64,000 nucleotides of DNA from an uncultured Candidatus Micrarchaeota archaeon (GCA_963791815.1 CAWBTT010000004.1:66215-130214), one strand, 5' to 3'. Shown: positions 3,227-63,056, counted from the first letter of the stretch. Notes: generated from the sequence alone by a model not told the origin. Translations and numbers: made by a program.

Positions 3227-3360
3227 TGGGCCTGTCGAGATTTGAACTCGAGACTTCCGCGGGATTATTCCCTCTACGGCTAACTCAGACTGTCTAATAT
3301 GAGTTGTATTAGAACGCGTCATATAAGACCGTCGCTCTAACCAGGCTGAGCTACAGGCCC
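3227..3360 (-). tRNA. tRNA with two insertions; best fold gives anticodon UAU (Ile)
   Basis: Minus-strand read: GGGCCTG TA GCTCAGCCTGGTTAGAGC G ACGGT CTTATA [40 nt] A GCCGT [~19 nt extra, GAGGGAATAATCCCGCGGA] AGTC TCGAG TTCAAAT CTCGA CAGGCCC A. Acceptor, D and T arms are canonical. Confidence 0.7.
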
Positions 3361-5086: not shown

Positions 5087-5755
5087 TTGGATGTGAAGGT
5101 AGATGGATTTGGTTCTGCAGGTTCAATGAAGAATGTAATTGAACTGCTGGGAATTTTGATGGGTGATGGCTGGCTCGGCATATATGGAAGACCCAGAAGG
5201 AGAAAACAAGTCTGTTTCTGTGGCAATTTAAAAGAAGAAAGAGAATACCGAAAATACGTTCAAGCCCTTATAAAAACTACACTAAACGTCAATGGATATT
5301 ATCAAGAAAGGAAAACCAACAATACCTACTACATAATCATCAACAGCGAAACGCTATTTGATTTTTTCCATGAAACTTATGATTTTCCAGTTGGTAAAAA
5401 ATACTATTTTAACACCAAAAAGTTGCCCAAAACCTGGAACCTACAAAAAGTTTTGATACGGGGGATTTTCGACACAGATGGCTCATTCTTCTTGGACCGG
5501 GACATCAGATATAAAGTCCCATACCCTATCCTCGATATAACACTAAAAAATCAAGAAGTTCTAGAATGGATAGTAAATACATTGAAAAGACGGGGATTTA
5601 GAACAATAAAATACGGGAGGCACATACGATTAAAAGGACATACAAACATCCAAAAATGGTTTACGGAAATTTCTCCGAAGAACACAGTACATACAAAAAA
5701 GTATTCTCAATGGAAAGAAGAATACCATATTGGGCCCGTAGCTCAGCTTGGATAG
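5087..5755 (+). CDS. Free-standing double-motif LAGLIDADG homing endonuclease
   Basis: Two LAGLIDADG-type motifs, LLGILMGDGWL and LIRGIFDTDGSF, about 100 aa apart. The body is AT-rich. The last 8 codons are read from the 5' end of the next tRNA. Confidence 0.75.
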   Translation: MDVKVDGFGSAGSMKNVIELLGILMGDGWLGIYGRPRRRKQVCFCGNLKEEREYRKYVQALIKTTLNVNGYYQERKTNNTYYIIINSETLFDFFHETYDFPVGKKYYFNTKKLPKTWNLQKVLIRGIFDTDGSFFLDRDIRYKVPYPILDITLKNQEVLEWIVNTLKRRGFRTIKYGRHIRLKGHTNIQKWFTEISPKNTVHTKKYSQWKEEYHIGPVAQLG

Positions 5756-5878
5756 ATTGGGCTGGTGTTTTTATCAACTGCCCCAAGTCTAAAGCGACGC
5801 TCTCCTATGCGTCCGGAAGAATTGCCTTCCGAACTCCGAGACAGGCGAAGGTCAGGGGTTCAAATCCCCTCGGGCCCG
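5732..5878 (+). tRNA. tRNA-Arg(CCU) with two introns (D-arm and 37/38)
   Basis: GGGCCCG TA GCTCAGCTTGGATAGA [37 nt, 5757-5793] GC G ACGCT CTCCTA [35 nt, 5808-5842] A GGCGA AGGTC AGGGG TTCAAAT CCCCT CGGGCCC G. The spliced length is 75 nt. Pair 27:43 is an A:A mismatch. Confidence 0.7.
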
Positions 5879-30604: not shown

Positions 30605-30712
30605 TGGGGTCACGGAGATTCGAACTCCGATATGCAGGTTTCTACGGCCACAAATGTCCTGTAAAGGACGGGATCTGGAGCCTGCCGTACTACCTGGTTA
30701 TACTATGACCCC
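30605..30712 (-). tRNA. tRNA-Trp(CCA) with a 35-nt intron at 37/38
   Basis: Minus-strand read: GGGGTCA TA GTATAACCAGGTAGTAC G GCAGG CTCCAG [35 nt] A CCTGC ATAT CGGAG TTCGAAT CTCCG TGACCCC A. Confidence 0.85.
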
Positions 30713-32782: not shown

Positions 32783-33724
32783 ATGACGGGTGGAATCACA
32801 AGAAGAGAGCTTATTTTTCGAAAATTGCCCACGGCAGTAGCTGCAGTGGCAGGCAGTTGCACCTTTCTTGGAGCTGCCAATGTGCTAGCTGAACCTATTC
32901 AGAGGCATAAAATGAGTTTGAAAGAGTATACCAACCACCTCCTGCTCCAGCATTGGGACAGGTTTCTAAAATTGAGGGAAAAAGAATTTTCAGAATTCTG
33001 CGGGGGGCATTTTCTGGACAAAACAGATGGCGAGGTTGCACACGGGTATGTTGCCTCATCGTTTTTCCATGAACTCATCAGAAGGAACGGGATTCTGGGA
33101 AACAGGTATATGCTGATAGGTGAGAGGCCCGAGAGAATACTGAAGGTTGATGGCGAAATCCTCGCACTATTAACAGAGAAAGAACTGGAGCTTAGGGGGC
33201 CAGGAAGAATGCTTAGTGACATGTTCTCCGGAAAGCCGAAGTATGCGCTCGAAGATGGTAGCAGGATTCATTGTTTTGGAGACTGTGATGAATACGAGAT
33301 GGCATACGCAACTATCGTAAAAGCAGTCGGCATCAATGCCAAGGTAGTTATGACTGAGGCCAGCCATGTGAACACCCAGATTGGGATTGGGGAAAAGAAG
33401 ATTCTAGTGGACAATACCAGAAACATGTTCGGACAAGGCGTTGATTGTAAAGGAAGGTGCAAGGACTACAAAACTGGTGAACTCGGATTCATAGAACCGC
33501 AGAAAGCAAGTATGTATATCAATAGAATCAACCGAATGGCAAGGGCAGGCACCAATGTTAGGATTTATCCGAAAGGAGAAAAAAGAGTGGATGAAAAAAT
33601 AGACAGTGCCCTGAGGCGCTGGGAGAAGGCTACTGAAGTTTCAGCATATCAAGAAGAGACTGGACTATTGCCCAGTTCACAAAGAGCACATACAGAAGAA
33701 GAAGGAACAACAGGGTCCAGATGA
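32783..33724 (+). CDS. Tat-signal protein with a possible transglutaminase-like Cys-His-Asp core
   Basis: N-terminal TRRELIFRKL plus a hydrophobic stretch. GDCDEYEMAYATIVKAVGINAKVV..ASHVNTQI....LVDNT resembles the TGase core order. The 3' 95 nt overlap the convergent gene. Confidence 0.35.
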   Translation: MTGGITRRELIFRKLPTAVAAVAGSCTFLGAANVLAEPIQRHKMSLKEYTNHLLLQHWDRFLKLREKEFSEFCGGHFLDKTDGEVAHGYVASSFFHELIRRNGILGNRYMLIGERPERILKVDGEILALLTEKELELRGPGRMLSDMFSGKPKYALEDGSRIHCFGDCDEYEMAYATIVKAVGINAKVVMTEASHVNTQIGIGEKKILVDNTRNMFGQGVDCKGRCKDYKTGELGFIEPQKASMYINRINRMARAGTNVRIYPKGEKRVDEKIDSALRRWEKATEVSAYQEETGLLPSSQRAHTEEEGTTGSR

Positions 33725-35138
33725 TGCGCATCTTCTTTTTCATAACCCATTTGTAGTATTTCTTTACCGGCTTGAAAAGCAGGAATGAGAATATCTTTCC
33801 GACTGCCTTGAGTATGAAATCAAGGAATTTGAGCAGGAACTTGAAAATCCCGTCCCAGATTGGAGGCCTTTTTTTCTTAGGTTTTTCTATAGGTTTTTTC
33901 TCTTGTTTAGGTTTTTCCTGATGGATTGGAGGTTCCTTTGCCTCTTGTTTCCTTACTACTTTTTTGGCAGGCTTTTCCCTTGCAGCTTTAGCATACTTCC
34001 TTGCCATTGCAGGGTCAGAAGCTTCAATCAGTGTTTCGTCAGGAACTACTCCCATAGTCGTTGCAGGGGCAAACATTTTCACCTCAACTGGTTCTGTCTG
34101 GCTCCCACCGTCTGCAAGTGTTGATACTATGGCGACTCCTGGAGGCATTCTTTTCAGCCTCTCCAAAACATCGATTTCAGATTCAGGAAATGATTGTGCA
34201 AGTGCCTTCAGCCTCCGGTTTCCTTTCTGTGTGAAGACCTTCTGTGAGAATATGATTTTCGTTGAGAGCTGGCTCAGTATGTCATCCGGAAGGTCGGTAA
34301 CATCCTGAGTGACAAAGAAAACCGAGACCCCTTTTGAGCGAATTTGTTTCAGTATGGTCACCATCAAATCCTGAAGGGATTTGTTTGAGTCTTTGAATAG
34401 ATAATGAGCCTCATCAAAGAATATCACATACTCCGGCCTCTCCACATCCCCCTTCTCAGGGAGGTTGTCAAAGAGCATCTGCAGGAGGAAAGCAGGGGCA
34501 ATAGAGACGCTCATGTCTTTTCTTGAATCTGAGAGGTTGAGGACATTCATACCCTTCAGGTCGTTAAGTTTGATACTGGGCCTGCCGAACATGTTTCCGG
34601 CTCCGGATTCCTGGAGTGCAAGAACTTTTCTTTCAATCACACTGACACTTGAGTTGCTGATTCCCCTTGCCTTGTTGTCTATAAGTTCATCAAGGACATC
34701 CAGAAGCTGCTCCAAATCATGAACAGGAATCCCATTCTTCTTTGCATAGGAGAATGCGAGGGCAAGGTGGCTCTCCTGAGTAGGATTCAATGAAAGGAGT
34801 TTTGATAGAAGCACTGTGCCAATCGAACTCACTGAGAAACGAAGTGGGATGTATCTTTCAGATATGCTCCAGTAATTTGTTTCAACCCCGTGAGGTTCAT
34901 ATGGAGCGAGCTTGTTTCTTTCGTGCGGATTGCCAGGAACACAGAATCCTGACGCGTCTCCCTTAATGTCTGATACGAAAACATCGACTCCCGAATCTGC
35001 CAGCTGCTCGGCTAAGACCTGCATGGTCCTGCTTTTTCCGGTTCCAGTGCTGCCTGCTATCAGGCCATGCCTTGTAAGGTATCTTGCCGGGATTCCTACT
35101 ACATCGCTTCCGTCAACACCAAGCTTGGGGTCACTCAT
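33630..35138 (-). CDS. DUF853/YjgR-like HerA-FtsK-superfamily NTPase with a Lys/Pro-rich linker and C-terminal membrane anchor
   Basis: Walker A AGSTGTGKSRT, Walker B VIFFDEAHYLF and FFVTQDVTDLP are present. The C-terminus is KPKQEKKPIEKPKKKR followed by hydrophobic helices. Confidence 0.65.
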   Translation of the reverse strand: MSDPKLGVDGSDVVGIPARYLTRHGLIAGSTGTGKSRTMQVLAEQLADSGVDVFVSDIKGDASGFCVPGNPHERNKLAPYEPHGVETNYWSISERYIPLRFSVSSIGTVLLSKLLSLNPTQESHLALAFSYAKKNGIPVHDLEQLLDVLDELIDNKARGISNSSVSVIERKVLALQESGAGNMFGRPSIKLNDLKGMNVLNLSDSRKDMSVSIAPAFLLQMLFDNLPEKGDVERPEYVIFFDEAHYLFKDSNKSLQDLMVTILKQIRSKGVSVFFVTQDVTDLPDDILSQLSTKIIFSQKVFTQKGNRRLKALAQSFPESEIDVLERLKRMPPGVAIVSTLADGGSQTEPVEVKMFAPATTMGVVPDETLIEASDPAMARKYAKAAREKPAKKVVRKQEAKEPPIHQEKPKQEKKPIEKPKKKRPPIWDGIFKFLLKFLDFILKAVGKIFSFLLFKPVKKYYKWVMKKKMRIIWTLLFLLLLYVLFVNWAIVQSLLDMLKLQ

Positions 35139-43041: not shown

Positions 43042-43126
43042 GTAGAACTAATTGTGAATAATAATGTTTAAAAATGTTTATTAGTGGATGGAAGTGGAAT
43101 GGTTTGGTTTTTCTTAGTAAATAAAT

Positions 43127-43210
43127 CGCTGAGGGGGAGATTTGAACTCCCGCGTGCTTTCGCACACAAGGTTAGCAACCTTGCGCCCTACCTAGCTAGG
43201 CGACCTCAGC
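43127..43210 (-). tRNA. tRNA-Ser(GCU), intron-less
   Basis: Minus-strand read: GCTGAGG..GCCTAGCTAGGTAGGGC GCAAGG TTGCTAA CCTTGT, then the long variable arm GTGCGAAAGCACGC, then GGGAG TTCAAAT CTCCC CCTCAGC G. Confidence 0.9.
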
Positions 43211-43256
43211 AGAGAAGTTGAGCGCCACTTATTCTAGTGTGTAATTTTCAAAAAGG

Positions 43257-50318: not shown

Positions 50319-50942
50319 ATGGGTAGACAAAAGGGTAGAGAATCTAGTGCAAACACAGCAAATGGAAGATGCTTCCCTAAAAATATCAAAGGGGGCGGAC
50401 CGGACACCATAGTCCGTTCATATAATACAAGGCTAGCACCTAAAGAAACTGGAAAAGGAATAGATGAGGACTTTAGACTCTCCCGTGAGCTTCAAGAGGC
50501 TGTAAAGGGAAATGATGTTGAAAAAGTAAAAACACTTATTTCTGAAGGAGCTGATGTTAATTTCAGAACACAAGTCAGCAAGACAACCCCTCTCATGATT
50601 GCATGTTGTCGTGAATTCAAAGAAATCACAGAGATATTGATTGAGAATGGGGCCGATGTGAATGATATCAAGGACCCACATGCAACTGAAGAATGGCCAG
50701 TATCATTAAATCCTGGGATAACTGCACTGATTCTCGCAGCATCAAACGGAGATGCAGAGATTGTGGAACTCCTTTTATTAGCGGGTGCGGATAAGGGTTA
50801 TGTTGGGTCAGGTGGTTTTACTGCTGAGGGTTTCGCACGTATTCTTTATCAATTTCATCAGGATCAACATCTTAGAGAAATTGTAAATGTTGTTGATATC
50901 CAAAGGATTATTGATATCCTTAGTCGCTCAGAGCAGGATTAG
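50319..50942 (+). CDS. Ankyrin-repeat protein
   Basis: Repeats include VKTLISEGADVNF, TPLMIAC...ILIENGADVN and TALILAASNGDAEIVELLLLAGAD. Confidence 0.7.
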   Translation: MGRQKGRESSANTANGRCFPKNIKGGGPDTIVRSYNTRLAPKETGKGIDEDFRLSRELQEAVKGNDVEKVKTLISEGADVNFRTQVSKTTPLMIACCREFKEITEILIENGADVNDIKDPHATEEWPVSLNPGITALILAASNGDAEIVELLLLAGADKGYVGSGGFTAEGFARILYQFHQDQHLREIVNVVDIQRIIDILSRSEQD

Positions 50943-53500
50943 ACGCTCTTGAACTCTTTTATCATATCCTCAAGCTCTTCAGTAGTCTGGAAAATGAGAG
51001 ACTTGCTGTCTGATTCCATTTTGAGTATGAGCGGGGCTACTGAGGGCGATGAGTTGAGAAGCGATGTGAATTGCTGCTTCTCATGCTCACTCTGGAACAT
51101 GATTATCGTGATTCCCTTGTTTATGGAATGGAGGACCTGCTTGAACATCGATTCCACATCACCATGCTTGTCAAAGAAGTGGAGATACATCTGCTGTCCC
51201 ACGACTGTGATGACGCTGTCTGCTTCCTTTGATTCGCCCATTCCGGTGAATGGGACCGCGTTGTTCACGCAGATATCCCTCAGCCTTCGAAGGAGCACGA
51301 GGTAGTCCATGCTGCGCTTGGATTTTGCTTCCCAGCTGGCAAGACCATAGTACCCAAGAGACCCTTTCACTTTGTTCTTTTTCTCAAGCTCATCGAGCAG
51401 ATACTCGACATTGTAATCAGTAATGAGAATGGGCCTTCCTTGGTAGAATATCGTCTTGAAACCATTCTTTATCTCTGGCGGCGTGAGCGGGGTGTTTTCC
51501 CAGCGGTAATTCTCATTAATCTTCTGGAAGAGGCTCAAGACCACATCAGGCGAAAGCGGCACCCTCGACCTTGTAACAGGCGGGAAGTGCGGGATGTCTA
51601 TTGAGTAGTAAATTTCTTCCTGCCGGGCGAAAATTGCACCAATACCAACTACACCCCCAGTAAGTATAACGACCACCCAGAAGAGAGGGTCATCGAATAT
51701 TGTCCGCTGTTTTGTATGGACAACTGGAACGTCGAGTGTCAGGGCGCCTGAAGTGAATTCAAATGAATGGTTTCCTAGGGGGAGGAACTGCCCGTCGGTT
51801 CTGCCCCCGACATCAATAATCATGGTATCCACATTGCTGAATGTGTATGTGCCGTAAGAGCCTTCATCAACAATCACGCTGACAGAGCCAAGAGTAACCG
51901 CTGCTCCGTCCATAGTCACCTCGAACTTGTACATGGACGGCTTTGCGCCATAACCAGTATGGTCTATGTCGATTGAAACGACCTTCATGTATGACTGCGT
52001 GTAGACTTTGCTCTCATCATCCATGAGGGAGACTATGTATTCTCCTTTCTCAACATAGACTGCAATGTCGAATGAACGGTCAGCCTGGACATTTACAAGG
52101 CCCTGCGGGAATGTTGCCACTTCCTGGCCCTCAGTATCAGTGATTATGAGGAACATCTCTGGTTGCGCTGCCTGTGGCTCCTTTAGAATGGCATTGAACC
52201 TGGCACGCTCCTGAGTAATGTTTGTGGAGACCACCTTCACCCCTTTTTCTATGAAGAGCTCGTTGGCGTGGTCCTTCTCAAGAGAGATGTAACGTATTTC
52301 CTTGATTGGGAAGTTTGATGCTGGAGAAAATCCTGTGAACTCCACCCTTATTGTGGCGTTTGGATCATCGAATGTATTTGTGAAGAAGTAACTCGAACCA
52401 TTGAGTTCGTCAGTTTCATCGAAAACGTATTTTTTGGTATCTGCGCTGGGTTTTGCCCATGGGGTTTCGATTACTATGCGTGCAATATCATTTGCAGCAG
52501 CTTCATAGCTTCCCCTCCATCCACCATCCAGAGTCTGTGGAAGGAAGACGAATGCGCCGTCGCCTTTTTTGACTGCGCTGACTGAGCCGTAAACGAGTTC
52601 GCTTTCCCATTGCCCTTTCCCAATTGCACGGTAGAGAGGCTGGAATAGAGTGAAATTGTCTTTGGATGAAATCTGGGTCGCCTGGTCAAATGTGATTGAG
52701 AATTGTGACAAATCCAAAGTAGGAGTTGACATGACAAGGGTTCCGTTGAGAATCTTTGTGAAAGGCTGCCCCACATATATTACTACGATTCCGCGTTCAG
52801 CCAGTTTGTTTGGTGTGATGAGACTGTCGTATCCAAGAATTTCTTTTGGAATGACACCGCTTGGAATTATCACAATTGCCCCCTGGGGCAGTGTTTCAAG
52901 TTCCTTGATTGTTATCTCATTGAGAACGATTTGGCGTGTTGAAAGGTTTGCTCTGAGCACCCTGATGAAGTCAGGGTATGTAGTTGCCTCTATCTTCTCA
53001 CTGTTGAGTATGAAGACGTCCGAGGGAATTCTGTCGTCGTATGGAGTAAGTTCAATGGTGTAATTTGCCAGGTTCTCGGTTTCGTAATCAATAAAAACCC
53101 CAGCAGTATATTCAGGGCTTCCACGTTTTCCAGAACTAAGCACTTCACCACTTACAAGAGTGTTCTGGATGGTTGGTTTGTCAAGCTGCGGTTCGAACTC
53201 TCCTGCACCTGCAAGAACCTGGGTGGTGAGGAAAAGCCAGCCGAGAGCGAGTATAATCACAGCGACTAGAACCGCTGCCCCAAAGACCATGAAGTTGAAT
53301 CCTCCGGGCGGAGGCGCTTCTGTGAGATCGGGTTTTTTCTCTTCCTTTTTAGGAGGATTTATTATTGCTTTTATCGCGTCCTTGATTTTCTCAATTGGCG
53401 GGCGTTCCACTATCTTGTAGTGATTCTCGTACTCGAACTTGTGCTTAAGCTCGAATTTGTATGTCTTTCTCGTGATTTTCGCCTTTTTTACGTCCGCCAT
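50939..53500 (-). CDS. Operon gene 5: 853-aa bitopic membrane protein with a large extracellular domain and ~215-aa cytoplasmic C-domain
   Basis: TM1 is FMVFGAAVLVAVIILALGWLFL (about aa 70-91). TM2 is LFWVVVILTGGVVGIGAIF (about aa 615-635). I recognise no family motif. Confidence 0.45.
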   Translation of the reverse strand: MADVKKAKITRKTYKFELKHKFEYENHYKIVERPPIEKIKDAIKAIINPPKKEEKKPDLTEAPPPGGFNFMVFGAAVLVAVIILALGWLFLTTQVLAGAGEFEPQLDKPTIQNTLVSGEVLSSGKRGSPEYTAGVFIDYETENLANYTIELTPYDDRIPSDVFILNSEKIEATTYPDFIRVLRANLSTRQIVLNEITIKELETLPQGAIVIIPSGVIPKEILGYDSLITPNKLAERGIVVIYVGQPFTKILNGTLVMSTPTLDLSQFSITFDQATQISSKDNFTLFQPLYRAIGKGQWESELVYGSVSAVKKGDGAFVFLPQTLDGGWRGSYEAAANDIARIVIETPWAKPSADTKKYVFDETDELNGSSYFFTNTFDDPNATIRVEFTGFSPASNFPIKEIRYISLEKDHANELFIEKGVKVVSTNITQERARFNAILKEPQAAQPEMFLIITDTEGQEVATFPQGLVNVQADRSFDIAVYVEKGEYIVSLMDDESKVYTQSYMKVVSIDIDHTGYGAKPSMYKFEVTMDGAAVTLGSVSVIVDEGSYGTYTFSNVDTMIIDVGGRTDGQFLPLGNHSFEFTSGALTLDVPVVHTKQRTIFDDPLFWVVVILTGGVVGIGAIFARQEEIYYSIDIPHFPPVTRSRVPLSPDVVLSLFQKINENYRWENTPLTPPEIKNGFKTIFYQGRPILITDYNVEYLLDELEKKNKVKGSLGYYGLASWEAKSKRSMDYLVLLRRLRDICVNNAVPFTGMGESKEADSVITVVGQQMYLHFFDKHGDVESMFKQVLHSINKGITIIMFQSEHEKQQFTSLLNSSPSVAPLILKMESDSKSLIFQTTEELEDMIKEFKSV

Positions 53501-53502
53501 GA

Positions 53503-54300
53503 CTATCTGACCACTTCAAGATATCCTTCGCTCACCAGGCGGTTAAGAGCCTCCTCAACTTTTGCCTCTGCAACTTTATGCAGTCTGGAGAACTCTGCAA
53601 TGTTTATTGAGCCGCTGTGCTCCATAATCCATTCCTGGAGTTTTGCCTTGAGCGCATTCTCAGAAAGCGCCGAGAGTTCGTGCACCTGAAGTTTCAGGGC
53701 ATCGTTCTCTGATTTCAGTTCATAATTGCTGGTTGTAAGAGCCTGGCCCTGTTCAGTTAGCCGGTCAACCTTGCGCTTGTAATCATTTACTTCCTTTTTG
53801 AGGGAATCGTAGTTTGTGAACAGCTTGGTGTAGTCCATTGTAACTGAACTGGAAAGCTGCTGAATCGAGTTCTCGATAAGCTGGTAAAGTGTTTTTTGGT
53901 CCACTTGATAGTCAGATTCGATGAGCGAGAGGATGTTGAGCAGGTAACGTATCACATCAACCTTTCTTTTCCTTGGGCTGATTTCCGGGGGGATTGTATA
54001 CATTACCTCGACTTCTTTTTCGCGGAGTTTCACAATTGAGAAGAGGTACGGATTCTTGTCAATATCCCTGCTCTCCACATAAATGACATTGAGCGCTTCT
54101 TTTTCAGGCGCGATTTCAAGGAATGAGATTGAGCGCAGTGTTGATGCGAGGTCTTTCAATTTTCCTTTTTTGAGTTTCCCAGTTAGCTTGAATCCATCAA
54201 CCTGCGGAGGATGTGTTGATTCTACCGGCTGCGGGCCGCTGCTTGCAGGTACTTCTCCTTTACTTGGCTCTTTTTTCTTTTTCGGAAGCGGGAGTGCCAT
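53503..54300 (-). CDS. Operon gene 4: coiled-coil protein with a C-terminal winged-helix-like domain
   Basis: There is a heptad-rich stretch, KKEVNDYKRKVDRLTEQGQALTTSNYELKSENDALKLQVHEL. The C-terminus is INIAEFSRLHKVAEAKVEEALNRLVSEGYLEVV. Confidence 0.4.
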   Translation of the reverse strand: MALPLPKKKKEPSKGEVPASSGPQPVESTHPPQVDGFKLTGKLKKGKLKDLASTLRSISFLEIAPEKEALNVIYVESRDIDKNPYLFSIVKLREKEVEVMYTIPPEISPRKRKVDVIRYLLNILSLIESDYQVDQKTLYQLIENSIQQLSSSVTMDYTKLFTNYDSLKKEVNDYKRKVDRLTEQGQALTTSNYELKSENDALKLQVHELSALSENALKAKLQEWIMEHSGSINIAEFSRLHKVAEAKVEEALNRLVSEGYLEVVR

Positions 54301-54304
54301 TCAT

Positions 54305-54805
54305 TCACCTTTTCTTTTTTGGTTTCTTTGCCGGTTTCTTCTTGACGGTTTTCTTTGCAGACTTCTTCGGGGCTTTCTGTACCACTGCAGTCTGCATTGG
54401 CTGTGCTTCCTGCACAGGCGGAGGCGCGACGTTTCCGACGACTATCGGATCCCTTGCCTCGATTGCAGGGGAATACTTGAACAAAGGCAGTGCAAGAACA
54501 AATCCTGAGATTATGAACGCAGATGCGATTGCCCAAAGGTCAAAGCGACCGCTTAATACCAGTGAGAATATTACAACTACAATAATAAGGCCGGCGAAAA
54601 CACTTGCAAAGAGCAGGCTTTTCTCAAAGCCGCGCCTTCTTTTTTTGTGTTCCTCAAGATGAGGCACTGACACGTAAAGCTGATTCATCTGGGCAATCCC
54701 AAAGAATTTTTTGACTGCCCGAATGGTTTTTATGACCCTATCATCCTGGACCGGAATAGCAAGCTGGCCATCCACGCTCTTCTGGGTATATATGCAGATT
54801 CTCAT
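54305..54805 (-). CDS. Operon gene 3: small 2-TM protein with a Lys-rich C-terminal tail
   Basis: Helices LLFASVFAGLIIVVVIFSLVL and WAIASAFIISGFVLALPLF. The tail is KAPKKSAKKTVKKKPAKKPKKKR. Confidence 0.4.
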   Translation of the reverse strand: MRICIYTQKSVDGQLAIPVQDDRVIKTIRAVKKFFGIAQMNQLYVSVPHLEEHKKRRRGFEKSLLFASVFAGLIIVVVIFSLVLSGRFDLWAIASAFIISGFVLALPLFKYSPAIEARDPIVVGNVAPPPVQEAQPMQTAVVQKAPKKSAKKTVKKKPAKKPKKKR

Positions 54806-54811
54806 CTTAAA

Positions 54812-56401
54812 CTACTCCTCAAGTACAACCTGGCTGATATCACGGCCAACACCGCCGCTCTTCTTGAGGTCAACTTTGCCGAATATGTTGATGATTGTGA
54901 TGTCATCAATTCCTGAATCCTTGAGGAAGTCACTGATGTTTCTTCTGGCAACGCCGTCACGTTCAAGATTGATTACGAACGAAACAACATCCATACGCCG
55001 ATTTGCCTTTTCAAAGGACTTGGACATCTGTTCGAGCTTGTCGTCGCTTAATCCAAACTGCCTGAGTTTCCTTCTGAAATCTTCTTTCAGGAATGATACG
55101 CTTCTTGACACCGAAATATCCCTCCGTTGTTTATCTGTAAGTACCCCGCTCATGTCAAGGAAGAACTCCTTGCTTGGCTCCTCACCCTCAATCTTCTGAA
55201 TAAGGAATGTTGACGGATACGGGGTCTGGGTTGTGAAGGACATGTTGACAGCACACTGCCCGACACCGAGCCTGCTAATTTCTTCCCTCATGTAGTTGCT
55301 GAAATTCAAAGAGCTCTGGAGATAATCCAGGAAACGCTCGAACTTCACTTTAAGGATGAAAGTTGTTCCGACGTTCGAGAAAATAGCCTCGCTGATATCC
55401 GTCGGGTTCTGCGATGCTATAATCATGCCGAAGTTGTACTTACGACCTTCACGCACAATCATGACCGCATCTGAGTTATCGTCCTTTCCGATTTTCCACG
55501 CTTCGTCGAGGACGATGAGCAATCTTAATCCGCTCTTGCGCGCACCTTCAATTGCTCCTGAGATTCTCATCCTCTCCTTGATGAACTGCAGGATTGTAAG
55601 TGCTGCCAGGGCACGCATTGTTTCATCAGGCAGTCCGACCAAATCAAGGTCAACAAGTCCGGATGTTACCAAAGCGTCAAGTTTGACAGTACTCTGCTGG
55701 GCAAAGAAATCCTCGCCAGGCTTTGTGAACTGCCTTAATCTGTAAATAGCATTCTCAAGTTCAGCAGGGAACTCGTAGCTTCCCATCTGGGCTTGCTCTG
55801 AAAGCACCCTGACGACATCTTTCAGGGTCGGGGCGGTGAGCGGCTTTCCAAGCTCGTCTTTCTGTTCGCGAGAATCCATCCTGAACTTGTTTTCTAAATA
55901 TGCCTTCTCGATTGCCTGCTCAGTGAGCCTTCTCTGCTCTGGATACTGGCTAATATCTGTAAGAAGTTCAAGGGTACGCATGATCTGCTTGATACGGTCA
56001 TATGGTTTCATTCCACCGAGGTCAAGAAGGTTCAGGTATGAACCTCTTCCCAGGCCAACGATTTTGCCGCCAGTCTGTTTTACCCAGTCCCGGTACTCTC
56101 CTGCCCAGTCAATGATGAGCGCATTCGAGTTCCAGATGAATGATGCACGAAGAAGGAAGGTCTTGATGAAATAAGACTTACCAGAACCTGAGATTCCACA
56201 GACCGCGATGTGCGGATTCGCGACATTCTCATGCGTCCAGTAGAACGGAACGCTGAATATCTTGGTCCTGCCGATATAGATTGAATTGGTCGGGTCAGGG
56301 AAAATAAGTTCCATAGGAGGCTCAGGAGGGTGTACCAGAAGGCTTCTTCTGGATATTGCGCTGTTCGGCACCCTAACGAGCTTGAGTCTTCCTCCAATCA
56401 T
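54812..56401 (-). CDS. Operon gene 2: VirB4/TrbE/HerA-like (AAA_10/DUF87-type) ATPase domain protein
   Basis: Walker A VCGISGSGKSYF, ALIIDWAGEY, Walker B RLLIVLDEAWKI and IIASQNPTD are present. Confidence 0.7.
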   Translation of the reverse strand: MIGGRLKLVRVPNSAISRRSLLVHPPEPPMELIFPDPTNSIYIGRTKIFSVPFYWTHENVANPHIAVCGISGSGKSYFIKTFLLRASFIWNSNALIIDWAGEYRDWVKQTGGKIVGLGRGSYLNLLDLGGMKPYDRIKQIMRTLELLTDISQYPEQRRLTEQAIEKAYLENKFRMDSREQKDELGKPLTAPTLKDVVRVLSEQAQMGSYEFPAELENAIYRLRQFTKPGEDFFAQQSTVKLDALVTSGLVDLDLVGLPDETMRALAALTILQFIKERMRISGAIEGARKSGLRLLIVLDEAWKIGKDDNSDAVMIVREGRKYNFGMIIASQNPTDISEAIFSNVGTTFILKVKFERFLDYLQSSLNFSNYMREEISRLGVGQCAVNMSFTTQTPYPSTFLIQKIEGEEPSKEFFLDMSGVLTDKQRRDISVSRSVSFLKEDFRRKLRQFGLSDDKLEQMSKSFEKANRRMDVVSFVINLERDGVARRNISDFLKDSGIDDITIINIFGKVDLKKSGGVGRDISQVVLEE

Positions 56402-56403
56402 AG

Positions 56404-57219
56404 TTATACCACACTCTCCTCAAGGTCCTGTGCAGTTGTCGGGAAGAATTTTTCCCATTCAAAGCATTTGAGCATCTCATCTCCTGCCAGGTTAACGACT
56501 TCGACATTGAGCGCGTTGGCAAGAACTGTCCTAAGTTCATTGGCCTGGCTCCTTGCAAGCGCGACAGCAGCATCCTTGCTGATTCCTACTGCTGTTGTCT
56601 GCGCATAAGCAACAATGGCCATTGGCTTGACACCCTTGATGAGCCTAGTTAGCTGCGCATCGAAAAGCGATGCCTCTCTTTCATACTTGTCAATCCTAAG
56701 AACATCCGGCTGCGGCTTGTCCCTTTCTCTTGCAAGACGAAGCTGGGCCTCTGCCCTCTTTGTCTCAATCATCTTTCTCTTCTCTCCGACATCTTCGACA
56801 AAAAGAAGGTATGCGATTTTTGTAACGTATTTGATGTTTGAAATCGCCCTCTCGAAAAACTGATTGTATGCGATGTTCTCATCCGCAGATTTTTCAGTGG
56901 CTGATTCGAATATTTTCAAACCGAGGAACGCTGAGGCGTAGTAGACTCCGCCGGTGTTTTTGATAATGACATCCTGGCTTGGAGGCACTTCGTACCCCTC
57001 ATCAGACATCATAACTATCTTCGTTCTTTCAGTGATAAGAGGAACCATGATGTATCCATATTTCCAGAAAAGAACGCCCATCAGTGAGCCAAGGCCTGCG
57101 AGAAGTCCGCCGATAACGGCAGCGAATCCTCCGCCGCCGATGAATGCGAATAGGGCCCCAACGACTCCAACTGCTATAGAAGCATAAAGAAATTTCCGTG
57201 CACCAAGATTTGCCGCCAT
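56404..57219 (-). CDS. Operon gene 1: membrane-anchored protein resembling the N-terminal half of VirB4-type ATPases
   Basis: An N-terminal TM hairpin (Gly-rich) is followed by a ~200-aa soluble domain. The stop is 2 nt before the ATPase start. The 271 + 529 aa total is about VirB4 size. The similarity call is by pattern only. Confidence 0.4.
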   Translation of the reverse strand: MAANLGARKFLYASIAVGVVGALFAFIGGGGFAAVIGGLLAGLGSLMGVLFWKYGYIMVPLITERTKIVMMSDEGYEVPPSQDVIIKNTGGVYYASAFLGLKIFESATEKSADENIAYNQFFERAISNIKYVTKIAYLLFVEDVGEKRKMIETKRAEAQLRLARERDKPQPDVLRIDKYEREASLFDAQLTRLIKGVKPMAIVAYAQTTAVGISKDAAVALARSQANELRTVLANALNVEVVNLAGDEMLKCFEWEKFFPTTAQDLEESVV

Positions 57220-57287
57220 ACGTTATCCCTCACTATTTTACGACAGTATGGTATTAAAATTCACCTGCCTGGTGCTTAACTGTCACA

Positions 57288-57301
57288 GAATATATAAAAA
57301 A
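57288..57301 (-). promoter_or_regulatory. Candidate TATA region (minus-strand TTTTTTATATATTC) for the five-gene operon
   Basis: It is the only strongly A/T box in the 95-nt gap after purB. GTGAGGGA (SD-like) lies 8 nt before ATG 57219. Confidence 0.3.
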
Positions 57302-57314
57302 GACTAGGATTGGC

Positions 57315-58622
57315 TTAATCCTTAACAGCGTTCTCGACGATTTCTACTGCGTTTCCTATATAGGTCGAGTAGTCAAATATCTTCTCTGCTTCTGCAGAAT
57401 CAAGAATATTCTTCTCGATGACCAGCTCCTTAAGATGTCTTCCTTCCTTGAAAGCGACCTGAGCGTTTGTGCGCACAAGTTCATGCGCCTCCTGCCTGCC
57501 CATCCCCTTTTCAGTAAGGGCAATCATCAGGCGCTCTGCCATGATGAGGCCATGAGTCAATTCAAGATTCCTTTTGATATGCTCCTCTGAGAATTCAAGC
57601 TTGTTTAGTATTTTGTTGAGTTCAAGGCACATGTAGTGGGTTCCTACGAAACTGCTTCCGAAAATGACACGCTCATTTGCACTGTTTGTGAGGTCCCTCT
57701 CGTGTTCAAGCGCGATATTCTCAAGGGCAACGGCAACATTTGCACGGATGACCCTCGCAACTGAGCAGATTCGTTCGCTCTTGTGTGGGTTCCTCTTGTG
57801 CGGCATTGTTGATGAGCCGACCTGCTTCTTGCCAAAGCCTTCTGAAATCTCAAGTATTTCGGTTCTCTGGAGATTTCTGATTTCCTTTGCTACTTTTTCT
57901 ATTGCAGCTGCAACCAATGCCAAATCGCAGAGAACCTCGGCGTGCCGGTCCCGCTGGACAACCTGGTTGGTGACCTTGGCCGCCTCTAGCCCAAGCTCTT
58001 CCATGACCATTTTCTGTATTTGCGGCCCCTGCCCCCTGAATGTGGCCATTGTGCCTACAGCCCCTGACATCTTGCCGACTGAGATTCTCTTCTTTGCCTC
58101 TTCGAGGCGTGCCATGTCCCTCTTCAATTCCTGAAAGTAAAGGGCGAATTTCATCCCGTAGGTTGTTGGAACGGCGTGCTGGCCATGAGTCCTGCCGATG
58201 CAGACCCTCTCTTTGTTCTCAAGAGCCAGTTTCTTCAGAGTTTCTGAAAGACCCCCTAAATCCTTCATAAGAAGGTCGATTGCATCGATGAAAATCAGTG
58301 CTGTGGCAGTATCCTCTATGTCATAGCTGGTTGCTCCCAGGTGGACGTATTTGCCGGCATCTCCTGCCTGCTCAGAGAGCGCCTTTACCATGGCCATTAG
58401 GTCATGGTGGATTTCGTCCTCGATTTCTTTTACCCTCTCAAGTTTCACCTTGGCCGCTGCTGCATCTATCTCTGCTGGCGCGCCCTCAGGGACATTGCCG
58501 AGCCTTGCGTGCGCCTTGGCCAGTGCTACTTCCACAGCCATCCACTTGCGGATTTTTGTGTCTTCCTCGAATATTGCATTCATCTCTGTGCCGTATCTTT
58601 CTTCAAATGGAGAAATGGACAT
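57315..58622 (-). CDS. purB: Adenylosuccinate lyase
   Basis: SPFEERYGTEM, GATSYDIEDTA and the signature GSSTMPHKRNP are present. Confidence 0.9.
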   Translation of the reverse strand: MSISPFEERYGTEMNAIFEEDTKIRKWMAVEVALAKAHARLGNVPEGAPAEIDAAAAKVKLERVKEIEDEIHHDLMAMVKALSEQAGDAGKYVHLGATSYDIEDTATALIFIDAIDLLMKDLGGLSETLKKLALENKERVCIGRTHGQHAVPTTYGMKFALYFQELKRDMARLEEAKKRISVGKMSGAVGTMATFRGQGPQIQKMVMEELGLEAAKVTNQVVQRDRHAEVLCDLALVAAAIEKVAKEIRNLQRTEILEISEGFGKKQVGSSTMPHKRNPHKSERICSVARVIRANVAVALENIALEHERDLTNSANERVIFGSSFVGTHYMCLELNKILNKLEFSEEHIKRNLELTHGLIMAERLMIALTEKGMGRQEAHELVRTNAQVAFKEGRHLKELVIEKNILDSAEAEKIFDYSTYIGNAVEIVENAVKD

Positions 58623-62857: not shown

Positions 62858-63056
62858 GCAGGGATAGCAAAGTCTGGTCAAATGCGCAGGACTTAAGAGA
62901 AACTTTCCTCATGTTTTTCCGAGGGTATAGTTCCATCAAACATCCTGAGGGAATCTCATGAAGTTTGGTGAAGCTTTATCATGTTCCTCTTGGAGGAAAG
63001 CTTCAAAGAAATCCTGTGGCTTAGTGCCTTCGCAGGTTCAAATCCTGCCCCCTGCA
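62858..63056 (+). tRNA. tRNA-Leu(UAA) with a 113-nt intron at 37/38
   Basis: GCAGGGA TA GCAAAGTCTGGTCAAATGC G CAGGA CTTAAG [62898-63010] A TCCTG TGGCTTAGTGCCTTC GCAGG TTCAAAT CCTGC CCCCTGC A. Pair 7:66 is an A:C mismatch. Confidence 0.8.

Follow-up and report, generated by a model that had tools for sequence, protein, structure and literature searches.

Five adjacent genes (g1 to g5) on the minus strand of a 64-kb stretch of chromosome from an uncultured archaeon of the Micrarchaeota (DPANN) were analyzed and probably encode the motor and envelope module of a machine derived from a type IV secretion system (T4SS), of the same kind as Ced and Ted, that has been domesticated on the chromosome and is a core feature of the Micrarchaeota (probability of roughly 0.7). 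The identity of the module, a T4SS derivative and chromosomal core system with a split VirB4/CedB motor, is the part of this interpretation that sequence comparison makes most secure, and we consider it highly probable; nucleic-acid import, which is suggested by analogy as its function, is put forward tentatively. The whole stretch of 64,000 nucleotides, termed the window, defined the scope of the searches made in the source genome. The genes and their predicted parts are as follows.

56404-57219, minus strand: g1 (271 aa), putative membrane-anchored N-terminal domain of the VirB4/CedB type, encoded as a separate protein
57031-57210, minus strand: g1 transmembrane (TM) hairpin, ~aa 4-63
56407-57024, minus strand: g1 soluble domain, aa 66-271
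54812-56401, minus strand: g2 (529 aa), P-loop ATPase assigned to the VirB4/CedB clade; ATPase core, ~aa 41-395
56174-56197, minus strand: g2 Walker A, GISGSGKS (residues 69-76)
55496-55522, minus strand: g2 Walker B, LLIVLDEAW (residues 294-302)
55436-55453, minus strand: g2 REGRKY motif
55397-55417, minus strand: g2 ASQNPTD motif (residues 329-335)
54815-55174, minus strand: g2 separable helical C-terminal module, aa ~410-529
54305-54805, minus strand: g3 (166 aa), small membrane protein; degenerate zinc ribbon, aa 1-60; TM helices, aa 65-83 and 97-115; basic tail, aa 127-166
53503-54300, minus strand: g4 (265 aa), cytoplasmic partner present in both of the paralogous systems described below; conserved mid domain, aa ~55-145; coiled coil, ~150-215
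53506-53655, minus strand: g4 winged helix, ~aa 216-265
50939-53500, minus strand: g5 (853 aa), two-TM envelope protein; Lys-rich N-tail; TM1, aa 70-96; ectodomain, aa ~106-600; TM2, aa 601-624
50942-51568, minus strand: g5 cytoplasmic winged-helix and alpha/beta domain, aa ~645-853, an orphan

The open reading frame (ORF) listing contained the same five minus-strand genes that had been described in a first-pass annotation of this DNA, with intergenic gaps of 2, 6, 4 and 2 nt. The three g2 motifs read at that time (Walker A, Walker B and ASQNPTD) were present, and the motif columns, catalytic residues included, were invariant across orthologues down to 35% identity. Three Pfam families matched g2 above the gathering score: DUF87 (49.7 bits; cut-off, 23.2) and AAA_10 (47.7 bits; cut-off, 27.5), both of which had been proposed as a check on its identity, and P-loop_TraG (33.3 bits; cut-off, 25.8). 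Matches to NCBIfam models, which cover the ATPase core of g2 only, were to VirB4-like CD1110 (5e-19, 67.9 bits; equivalog cut-off, 325), CedB (1e-17, 63.9 bits; cut-off, 700), CedD (3e-17, 62.6 bits; cut-off, 600), the VirB4 of a Mycoplasma integrative and conjugative element (ICE) (1e-16, 59.6 bits), HerA (6e-13, 48.1 bits) and VirB4_CagE (34.2 bits; cut-off, 643). HerA was outscored by CD1110, CedB, CedD and VirB4_plasma. As g2 starts ~40 residues ahead of Walker A, it has neither the HAS barrel of HerA nor a VirB4 N-domain of its own. Matches among PDB sequences were to HerA, DptH and the VirB4 C-terminal domain (4ag5). Membership of a HerA-NurA system, an outcome that the first-pass annotation had envisaged, was not supported, since the HAS barrel is absent from g2 and no NurA, Mre11 or Rad50 gene was found in the neighborhood. 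These profile matches show g2 to belong, by its sequence, to the VirB4/CedB clade of P-loop ATPases within the FtsK/HerA superfamily.

The last ~100 to 120 aa of g2 form an ORF of their own (~100 aa) in many lineages. PADLOC and PHROGs matches of g2 were restricted to generic HerA, DndH and terminase ATPase cores; a reading as a defence system was rejected because no partner gene was found. Inteins favor essential, highly conserved genes, and LAGLIDADG inteins (Pfam Intein_splicing and LAGLIDADG_3) were observed in g2 orthologues (P0359, P0360 and L025:6168-9308) at two sites, one right after Walker A and the other right before Walker B, which fits a highly conserved and probably important gene. 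Many short ATPases of ~365 to 380 aa (e.g., P0423 and P0437) match g2 in two stretches, which take in its C-terminal region to ~residue 507, and are without the helical insert at 125-245.

The relationship of g1 to the motor emerged from an exhaustive HMMER search with g2 against 1.8 billion representatives. Beyond orthologues of ~500 aa, this search gave two groups, one of proteins of 813 to 913 aa and the other of intein-containing orthologues. The match to g2 begins near residue 285 of the long proteins, which (at ~890 aa) consist of a TM hairpin, a ~220-aa domain, the ATPase, a winged helix and a PD-(D/E)xK-like (nuclease-like) module and are the closest relatives of g2 outside the Micrarchaeota. 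A shallow first alignment of g1 with the N terminus of these fused proteins was suggestive only (E, 1.3e-3). A profile of 96 g1 sequences, drawn from the genome loci described below, was then aligned by hhalign with the fused N-terminal 285 aa, giving a match of 98.5% with an E value of 2.3e-15 over 242 collinear columns. With the TM hairpin removed, the E value was 7.8e-14 and the score 91, compared with 15 for a reversed template and 10 to 17 for 20 column-shuffled templates. The g1 hidden Markov model (HMM) also matched fused long ORFs directly in metagenomic contigs, with E values down to 2e-12. The NCBIfam CedB model spans both the N-domain and the ATPase of the fused proteins (6.9e-42, profile positions 75-587 of 590), and the fused N-terminal 285 aa alone matched the N-region of CedB (5.9e-6) and, at consistent positions, that of VirB4_plasma (4.9e-5, 1.2e-3 and 1.8e-3). 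Structural homology between the CedB N-domain and part of the VirB4 N-domain has been published (PMC11868833). At the junction, the g2 N terminus (PPEPP-ELI...IYIGRT) aligns with PKVPPIEKLI...VYLGRT of the fused form. These alignments show g1 and g2 to correspond, in terms of homology, to a single CedB/VirB4-type protein that has been divided at the linker joining the N-domain to the ATPase, in agreement with the earlier suggestion that g1 represents the N-terminal part of a VirB4-type ATPase. The split was common to all of the Micrarchaeota sampled.

The TM hairpin of g1 was assigned from AlphaFold2 (AF2) helices at residues 4-27 and 32-63 together with the family alignment, hydropathy having flagged residues 10-28 only. 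The Pfam CagE_TrbE_VirB N-domain model, which had been proposed for checking g1, did not match it. Searches of PDB sequences returned only coiled-coil noise with the g1 profile and nothing with the single g1 sequence, and comparison of g1 with the N terminus of the Iainarchaeum VirB4 (L079) gave no signal. In every one of their contigs, a CedA1-like gene (1.8e-12) and a CedA-like gene (1.4e-16) lay ahead of the fused ATPase gene. These loci (L081-L105, from metagenomic contigs) have XerA-type recombinases, restriction-modification genes and an M48 peptidase in their vicinity, and they resemble Ced-like systems carried by integrated elements of uncultured archaea.

Conservation of the five genes was examined in sequence clusters and in genome loci. 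More than 120 clusters of g2 (90% identity) were 69 to 96% identical and all of ~527 aa, and all of the named ones were from Micrarchaeota or Bilamarchaeaceae. Homologues of g1 (67 to 99% identical) were always free-standing and of ~270 aa, and those of g5 (31 to 100% identical) were always of ~855 aa. A scan of one genome per GTDB species detected 519 g2 relatives, of which the best 80 loci were examined by calling ORFs (with starts taken as naive first-start calls) and searching these with iteratively built HMMs. The titles of 77 of the best 80 loci named Micrarchaeota or a generic or probably mis-binned archaeal metagenome-assembled genome (MAG); the exceptions (L078-L080) were two Patescibacteria and one Iainarchaeum. 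In ~50 of the best 80 loci, the order g1-g2-g3-g4-g5 was found on one strand (type 1), the gene-neighborhood comparison suggested in the first-pass annotation thereby bearing out the conserved order. As this order recurs in ~50 independent genomes and more than 100 equal-length homologue clusters were obtained for every gene, the block is beyond chance.

Identities to the window in the nearest relatives (L001-L007) were 80 to 88% for g2, 72 to 79% for g1, 71 to 75% for purB, 65 to 74% for NUDIX, 58 to 73% for g4, 48 to 72% for TFE, 56 to 69% for GT4, 50 to 59% for g5 and 40 to 65% for g3. The values for g2 and purB indicate that the motor evolves more slowly than the adjoining housekeeping gene. 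Both flanks (purB; TFE/NUDIX/GT4) were syntenic in the relatives, and the GC content of the window was even (0.41 to 0.48), with no step at the five-gene block. No relatives were found in phage records searched with g2 or in viral contigs searched with the fused-form alignment, and plasmid matches were only 22 to 27% identical. There was no relaxase, coupling protein or integrase gene in the five genes or the ~10-kb flanks, the rest of the window not being scanned gene by gene. Judged from gene order, syntenic housekeeping flanks and the slow evolution of g2, the five-gene block is a chromosomal core feature of the Micrarchaeota and not a mobile element. Chromosomal fixation had been proposed at first pass, and the integrated conjugative plasmid or virus that was named there as the opposing outcome did not appear among the viral searches or the phylum-wide synteny.

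The partner proteins had been termed unrecognizable in the first-pass annotation, and no Pfam, NCBIfam, PHROG or PADLOC family matched g1, g3 or g5. The g3 gene is present only in the type 1 system. Most g3 orthologues carry an N-terminal CxxC...CxxC zinc ribbon, of which the window copy keeps one Cys only, and hydropathy placed two TM helices after the ribbon, as originally described. The variable basic tail that follows is often absent from orthologues; hence, the argument made at first pass from the Lys tail as a nucleic-acid-binding feature is weak. Comparisons of g3 with pilin, CedA1 and pore families found them to be unrelated. The g4 protein has no TM helix, and Pfam matches were limited to coiled-coil noise and weak GntR/MCM winged-helix matches. 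The C terminus of the g4 profile matched the CdvB winged helix (2xvc; E, 6e-4), consistent with the C-terminal winged helix previously assigned to this protein. In both type 1 and type 2 (see below), g4 always follows the ATPase; the Ced-like loci of the fused forms contain no g4.

The g5 protein had been described as bitopic, but an AF2 model with a predicted local distance difference test (pLDDT) score of 82, together with hydropathy, indicated two TM helices, at ~70-96 and 601-624. The Lys-rich N-tail and the ~210-aa C-domain would, therefore, both be cytoplasmic. In the model, the ectodomain comprises a beta-sandwich, a well-conserved alpha/beta domain and tandem Ig-like sandwiches, for which Foldseek (PDB and BFVD) returned only generic macroglobulin/Ig-like, RbmA, GH42 and phage tail/Big sandwiches. 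Profile searches with the g5 C-domain matched no Pfam, NCBIfam or PDB family. In hhalign comparisons, no relationship to the winged-helix and nuclease-like C terminus of the fused forms was found for the g5 C-domain, the C-module of g2, g4 or g3.

A second, paralogous system (type 2) consists of g1'-g2'-g4' only, with an ATPase ~40% identical to g2, and g1, g2 and g4 constitute the invariant trio of both systems. Types 1 and 2 occur in the same MAGs (L001/L056, L007/L059, L042/L060 and L015/L063). Directly upstream of g1', type 2 loci encode an 81-aa two-TM protein and a polytopic protein of 310 to 360 aa, and HMMs built from these two proteins were run on the other loci. Among the 42 type 1 loci for which 3 kb or more of upstream DNA was available, 23 carried one to six pilin- or pore-like genes directly ahead of g1. 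In many type 1 loci these are arrays of four to six paralogues (310 to 400 aa) directly upstream of g1a, while in others tandem genes of 114 to 140 aa are found. The small upstream proteins matched TrbC/VirB2 (Pfam, 1.1e-5, 26.0 bits against a cut-off of 27.9) and TrwL (3.7e-5), and the small-protein HMM matched a bona fide PF18895 T4SS pilin of Iainarchaeum (2.7e-13); by these matches, they look like VirB2-type pilins. The large upstream proteins aligned over their full length with a CedA-like family (82%; E, 1.1e-5; score, 44.5, as against 16.7 for the reversed and 18 to 26 for block-shuffled controls) and look like pores of the CedA/VirB6 type. The first gene of each pore array holds a pilin-like region, mirroring the relation reported for CedA and CedA1 (PMC9905601). 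HMMs of CedA and CedA1 from the fused loci did not match the window or any of the Micrarchaeota loci. The earlier statement that the layout differs from that of Ced is, therefore, only partly upheld: the window has no pore or pilin gene, but related, orthologous operons carry VirB2-like and CedA/VirB6-like genes upstream.

Arrays of four to six CedA/VirB6-like genes were seen in Micrarchaeaceae and Fermentimicrarchaeum (L020-L047 and others, e.g., L032:140-6255). In these and other lineages, g1 is tandemly duplicated (g1a and g1b) and the g2 C-module is separate. Both systems lie beside purine genes: purB is directly upstream of type 1, and co-directional with it, in the window and 10 loci, and purD is directly downstream of type 2 (after g4'), and co-directional, in 11 loci (e.g., L056:10406-11704). 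Shortly after purD, type 2 loci also have a conserved gene for a secreted transglutaminase-like protein (Pfam Transglut_core, 1.5e-24; e.g., L061:11540-12781 and L055:11468-12796).

The closest systems are Ced of the Sulfolobales (CedA, CedA1, CedA2, CedB and CedD/CedE) and Ted of the Thermoproteales (TedA/B/C), which, like the Micrarchaeota operon, are chromosomal, relaxase-less T4SS derivatives built around a membrane-anchored VirB4-like ATPase. CedB is among the top models for g2, the fused relatives of g1 and g2 are CedB-like with CedA and CedA1 neighbors, and orthologous Micrarchaeota operons have VirB2-like and CedA-like genes. Paralogous ATPase and pore sets coexist in Ced, as CedB/CedD and CedA/CedE (PMC11868833), and paired systems likewise coexist in Micrarchaeota. 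Unlike in Ced and Ted, the N-domain and ATPase are separate genes phylum-wide, g3, g4 and g5 have no counterpart, the window is without a pore or pilin gene, and g2 scores far under the CedB and CedD cut-offs. Conjugative VirB4 proteins (MPF-FATA, a mating-pair formation class; VirB3-VirB4 fusions) share with g1 and g2 an ATPase domain of the AAA_10, P-loop_TraG and CD1110-like type and, on transitive evidence, an N-domain related to the VirB4 N-region; the g1 TM hairpin before this domain may resemble a VirB3-like anchor. In contrast to conjugative VirB4, the motor consists of two proteins and is not on a mobile element, and no VirD4, relaxase, VirB8 or VirB1 was found with the operon.

Outside the archaea, the nearest parallel in print is the near-universal, relaxase-less, VirB4-centered chromosomal T4SS of the ultrasmall, often episymbiotic Patescibacteria (candidate phyla radiation) (PMC12102498). 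This system parallels the Micrarchaeota operon in being VirB4 centered and fixed on the chromosome, and patescibacterial VirB4s were the next-best genome matches after Micrarchaeota (L078 and L080; 27 to 28% identity). It differs in belonging to another domain of life, in its partners and in having VirB4 as a single polypeptide. The SPEARE proteins of Nanohaloarchaeota, which are also DPANN archaea, combine an Ig-like surface domain, a TM segment, a cytoplasmic VirB4-like ATPase and a coiled coil (PMC10266531); SPEARE is one giant protein with ~75 Ig domains, as opposed to five modest genes in Micrarchaeota. No description of the present system in Micrarchaeota or other DPANN was found in the papers searched, the genome papers on Mia14 and Anstonellales discussing only type IV pili. 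The phylum-wide split motor and three unrecognized components would be new, set on a Ced/Ted-like ancestry.

In the mechanism that we propose, a hexamer of g2 would be held at the membrane by g1, and lineages with a duplicated g1 would probably have a mixed ring of N-domains, comparable to the complementary N-domains of CedB and CedD. A coiled-coil dimer of g4 would bind the motor and possibly the substrate through its winged helices, g3 and g5 would contribute TM helices, and g5 would place a ~500-aa Ig-like stalk across the envelope with its cytoplasmic domain at the motor. Pore and pilin proteins would be supplied from elsewhere in the genome, and the task of the machine would be to transport a macromolecule through the membrane. 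The likeliest function, given the analogy with Ced and Ted and the absence of a relaxase or coupling protein, is uptake of DNA or other nucleic acid from neighboring cells, and we hold it with less than even confidence. The type 2 locus with its pore gene is present in the genomes of the relatives of the window.

Several findings weigh against this interpretation. No pilin- or CedA/VirB6-like gene was detected in the 64-kb window at an E value of ≤10, and in the closest relatives there is likewise no pilin or pore gene beside the operon, purB being found there instead. The AF2 model of g1, made from a 33-sequence alignment, had a pLDDT of 57 and was unusable, so the link between g1 and the VirB4 N-domain is transitive and sequence based rather than structural. 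No curated family was matched by g1, g3, g4 or g5, and g2 falls far under every NCBIfam equivalog cut-off tested (CedB, CedD, VirB4 and TraC); it is, therefore, a distinct subfamily and not an orthologue of those families. Both the substrate and the direction of transport are what we infer from the analogy with Ced and Ted. Finally, synthesis of nucleotides de novo has been reported for the clade of the window, the Anstonellales/Bilamarchaeaceae (PMC8561730), which leaves a rationale based on scavenging insecure and makes strict host dependence an unsafe premise; the first-pass annotation had taken the archaeon to be host dependent.

The strongest alternative is that the five genes serve filament or adhesion assembly, or protein secretion to a partner cell, with the VirB4-like motor acting as a pilin dislocase or effector pump, roles that have been proposed for the SPEARE-associated VirB4-like ATPases of Nanohaloarchaeota, in which giant Ig-like surface proteins are tied to VirB4/TraG-like ATPases (PMC10266531). 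VirB4 is needed for pilus biogenesis (PMC12102498), sister lineages have several pilin-like paralogues ahead of the orthologous operon, and the Ig-like g5 ectodomain is of an adhesin type. Against these points, the closest characterized relatives, Ced and Ted, import DNA (PMC9905601, PMC11868833), winged-helix modules are present in g4 and g5, and no effector-like gene is conserved with the operon, the ankyrin-repeat gene beside it being missing from syntenic relatives. On balance, assembly of a filament or secretion of protein appears unlikely, though it deserves to be kept in mind.

A membrane-anchored, FtsK/HerA-like housekeeping DNA pump acting in chromosome segregation, division or repair is clearly less probable still. 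Such a pump would be in keeping with the very high conservation, exceeding that of purB, the phylum-wide presence, the inteins in g2 orthologues and the similarity of g2 to HerA/DUF87 and FtsK_SpoIIIE. However, g2 begins too close to Walker A (~40 aa) to have a HAS-barrel N-domain, genes for NurA, Mre11 and Rad50 are not nearby, HerA scores lower than the VirB4 and Ced models, the partner that supplies the N-domain belongs to the CedB/VirB4 type, T4SS pilin- and pore-like genes are linked to the operon in sister lineages, and a large extracellular protein is obligatory in it. That the block is an integrated conjugative plasmid, ICE or provirus is already effectively refuted: its ATPase family is typical of conjugative elements, and in metagenomic contigs the fused g1+g2 relatives have tyrosine recombinases and restriction-modification genes close by, but its position and order are constant across the phylum with syntenic purB and TFE/NUDIX/GT4 flanks, its composition is even, the operon and ~10-kb flanks contain no relaxase, coupling protein or integrase, and the searches found no viral-contig or phage relatives and only the distant (22 to 27% identical) plasmid matches.

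The lifestyle of DPANN archaea is believed to be based on contact with other cells, and the machines at this interface are largely unknown. As a domesticated, Ced/Ted-like T4SS derivative, the operon would be a concrete candidate for such contact machinery, being phylum-wide, slow evolving and conjugation derived and, in its rebuilt form, having a split motor plus three parts that are new. It would extend the Ced/Ted story of domesticated archaeal T4SSs from Thermoproteota to DPANN and would provide a natural experiment in which the VirB4 N-domain and ATPase work as separate chains. The parallel with Patescibacteria hints that both ultrasmall radiations have convergently put conjugation-derived machines to use. 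As cultured Micrarchaeota-host pairs exist, among them Ca. Micrarchaeum harzensis A_DKE with a Thermoplasmatales host and Ca. Mancarchaeum Mia14 with Cuniculiplasma, the hypothesis is directly testable. A bolder proposal, which we offer as a speculation with the odds against it, is that two co-operating conjugation-derived translocons (type 1, g1-g5; type 2, pilin-pore-g1'-g2'-g4') form a conduit for nucleic-acid uptake from partner cells. If so, this conduit would be the archaeal counterpart of the near-universal patescibacterial T4SS, the split and duplicated g1a/g1b with g3, g4 and g5 would represent an envelope-spanning architecture unseen in described T4SSs, and the linkage of the two systems to purB and purD would reflect coupling to the nucleotide economy.

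The region upstream of g1 contains the following features, of which the leader elements were read directly from the sequence.

57315-58622, minus strand: purB, directly upstream of g1 on the same strand
57220-57314, minus strand: purB-g1 intergenic leader, 95 nt
57291-57300, minus strand: putative T-rich/TATA-like element, TTTTTATATA
57252-57260, minus strand: putative TATA-like element, ATTTTAATA
57227-57231, minus strand: Shine-Dalgarno (SD)-like GAGGG, 8 nt before the g1 ATG

The assignment of a promoter to this leader is conditional on these putative elements. With TATA-like and SD-like elements upstream, a single transcript for g1 to g5 is plausible. Downstream of the operon, the order is a convergent ankyrin-repeat gene, NUDIX, TFE-alpha, DUF460, a GT4 glycosyltransferase and ribosomal protein S6e. 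The ankyrin-repeat gene (50319-50942, plus strand) converges on g5 with a 4-nt overlap with the g5 stop codon. As otherwise syntenic relatives are without it, it represents a lineage-specific insertion, and any tie to the translocase is speculative.

Elsewhere in the window, a second ATPase of the FtsK/HerA superfamily is encoded at 33630-35138 on the minus strand (502 aa; HerA_C/PF05872; E, 2.9e-90). Among NCBIfam models it matched CedD best (1e-16). The protein carries a linker rich in Lys and is anchored by a C-terminal TM segment, and its gene lies amid housekeeping genes ~20 kb from the operon. ARAGORN reported only a tRNA-Ser (43126-43211), missing four tRNA matches of 108 to 199 nt that were detected with Rfam (3227-3360, 5732-5878, 30605-30712 and 62858-63056) and are presumably intron-containing archaeal tRNAs.

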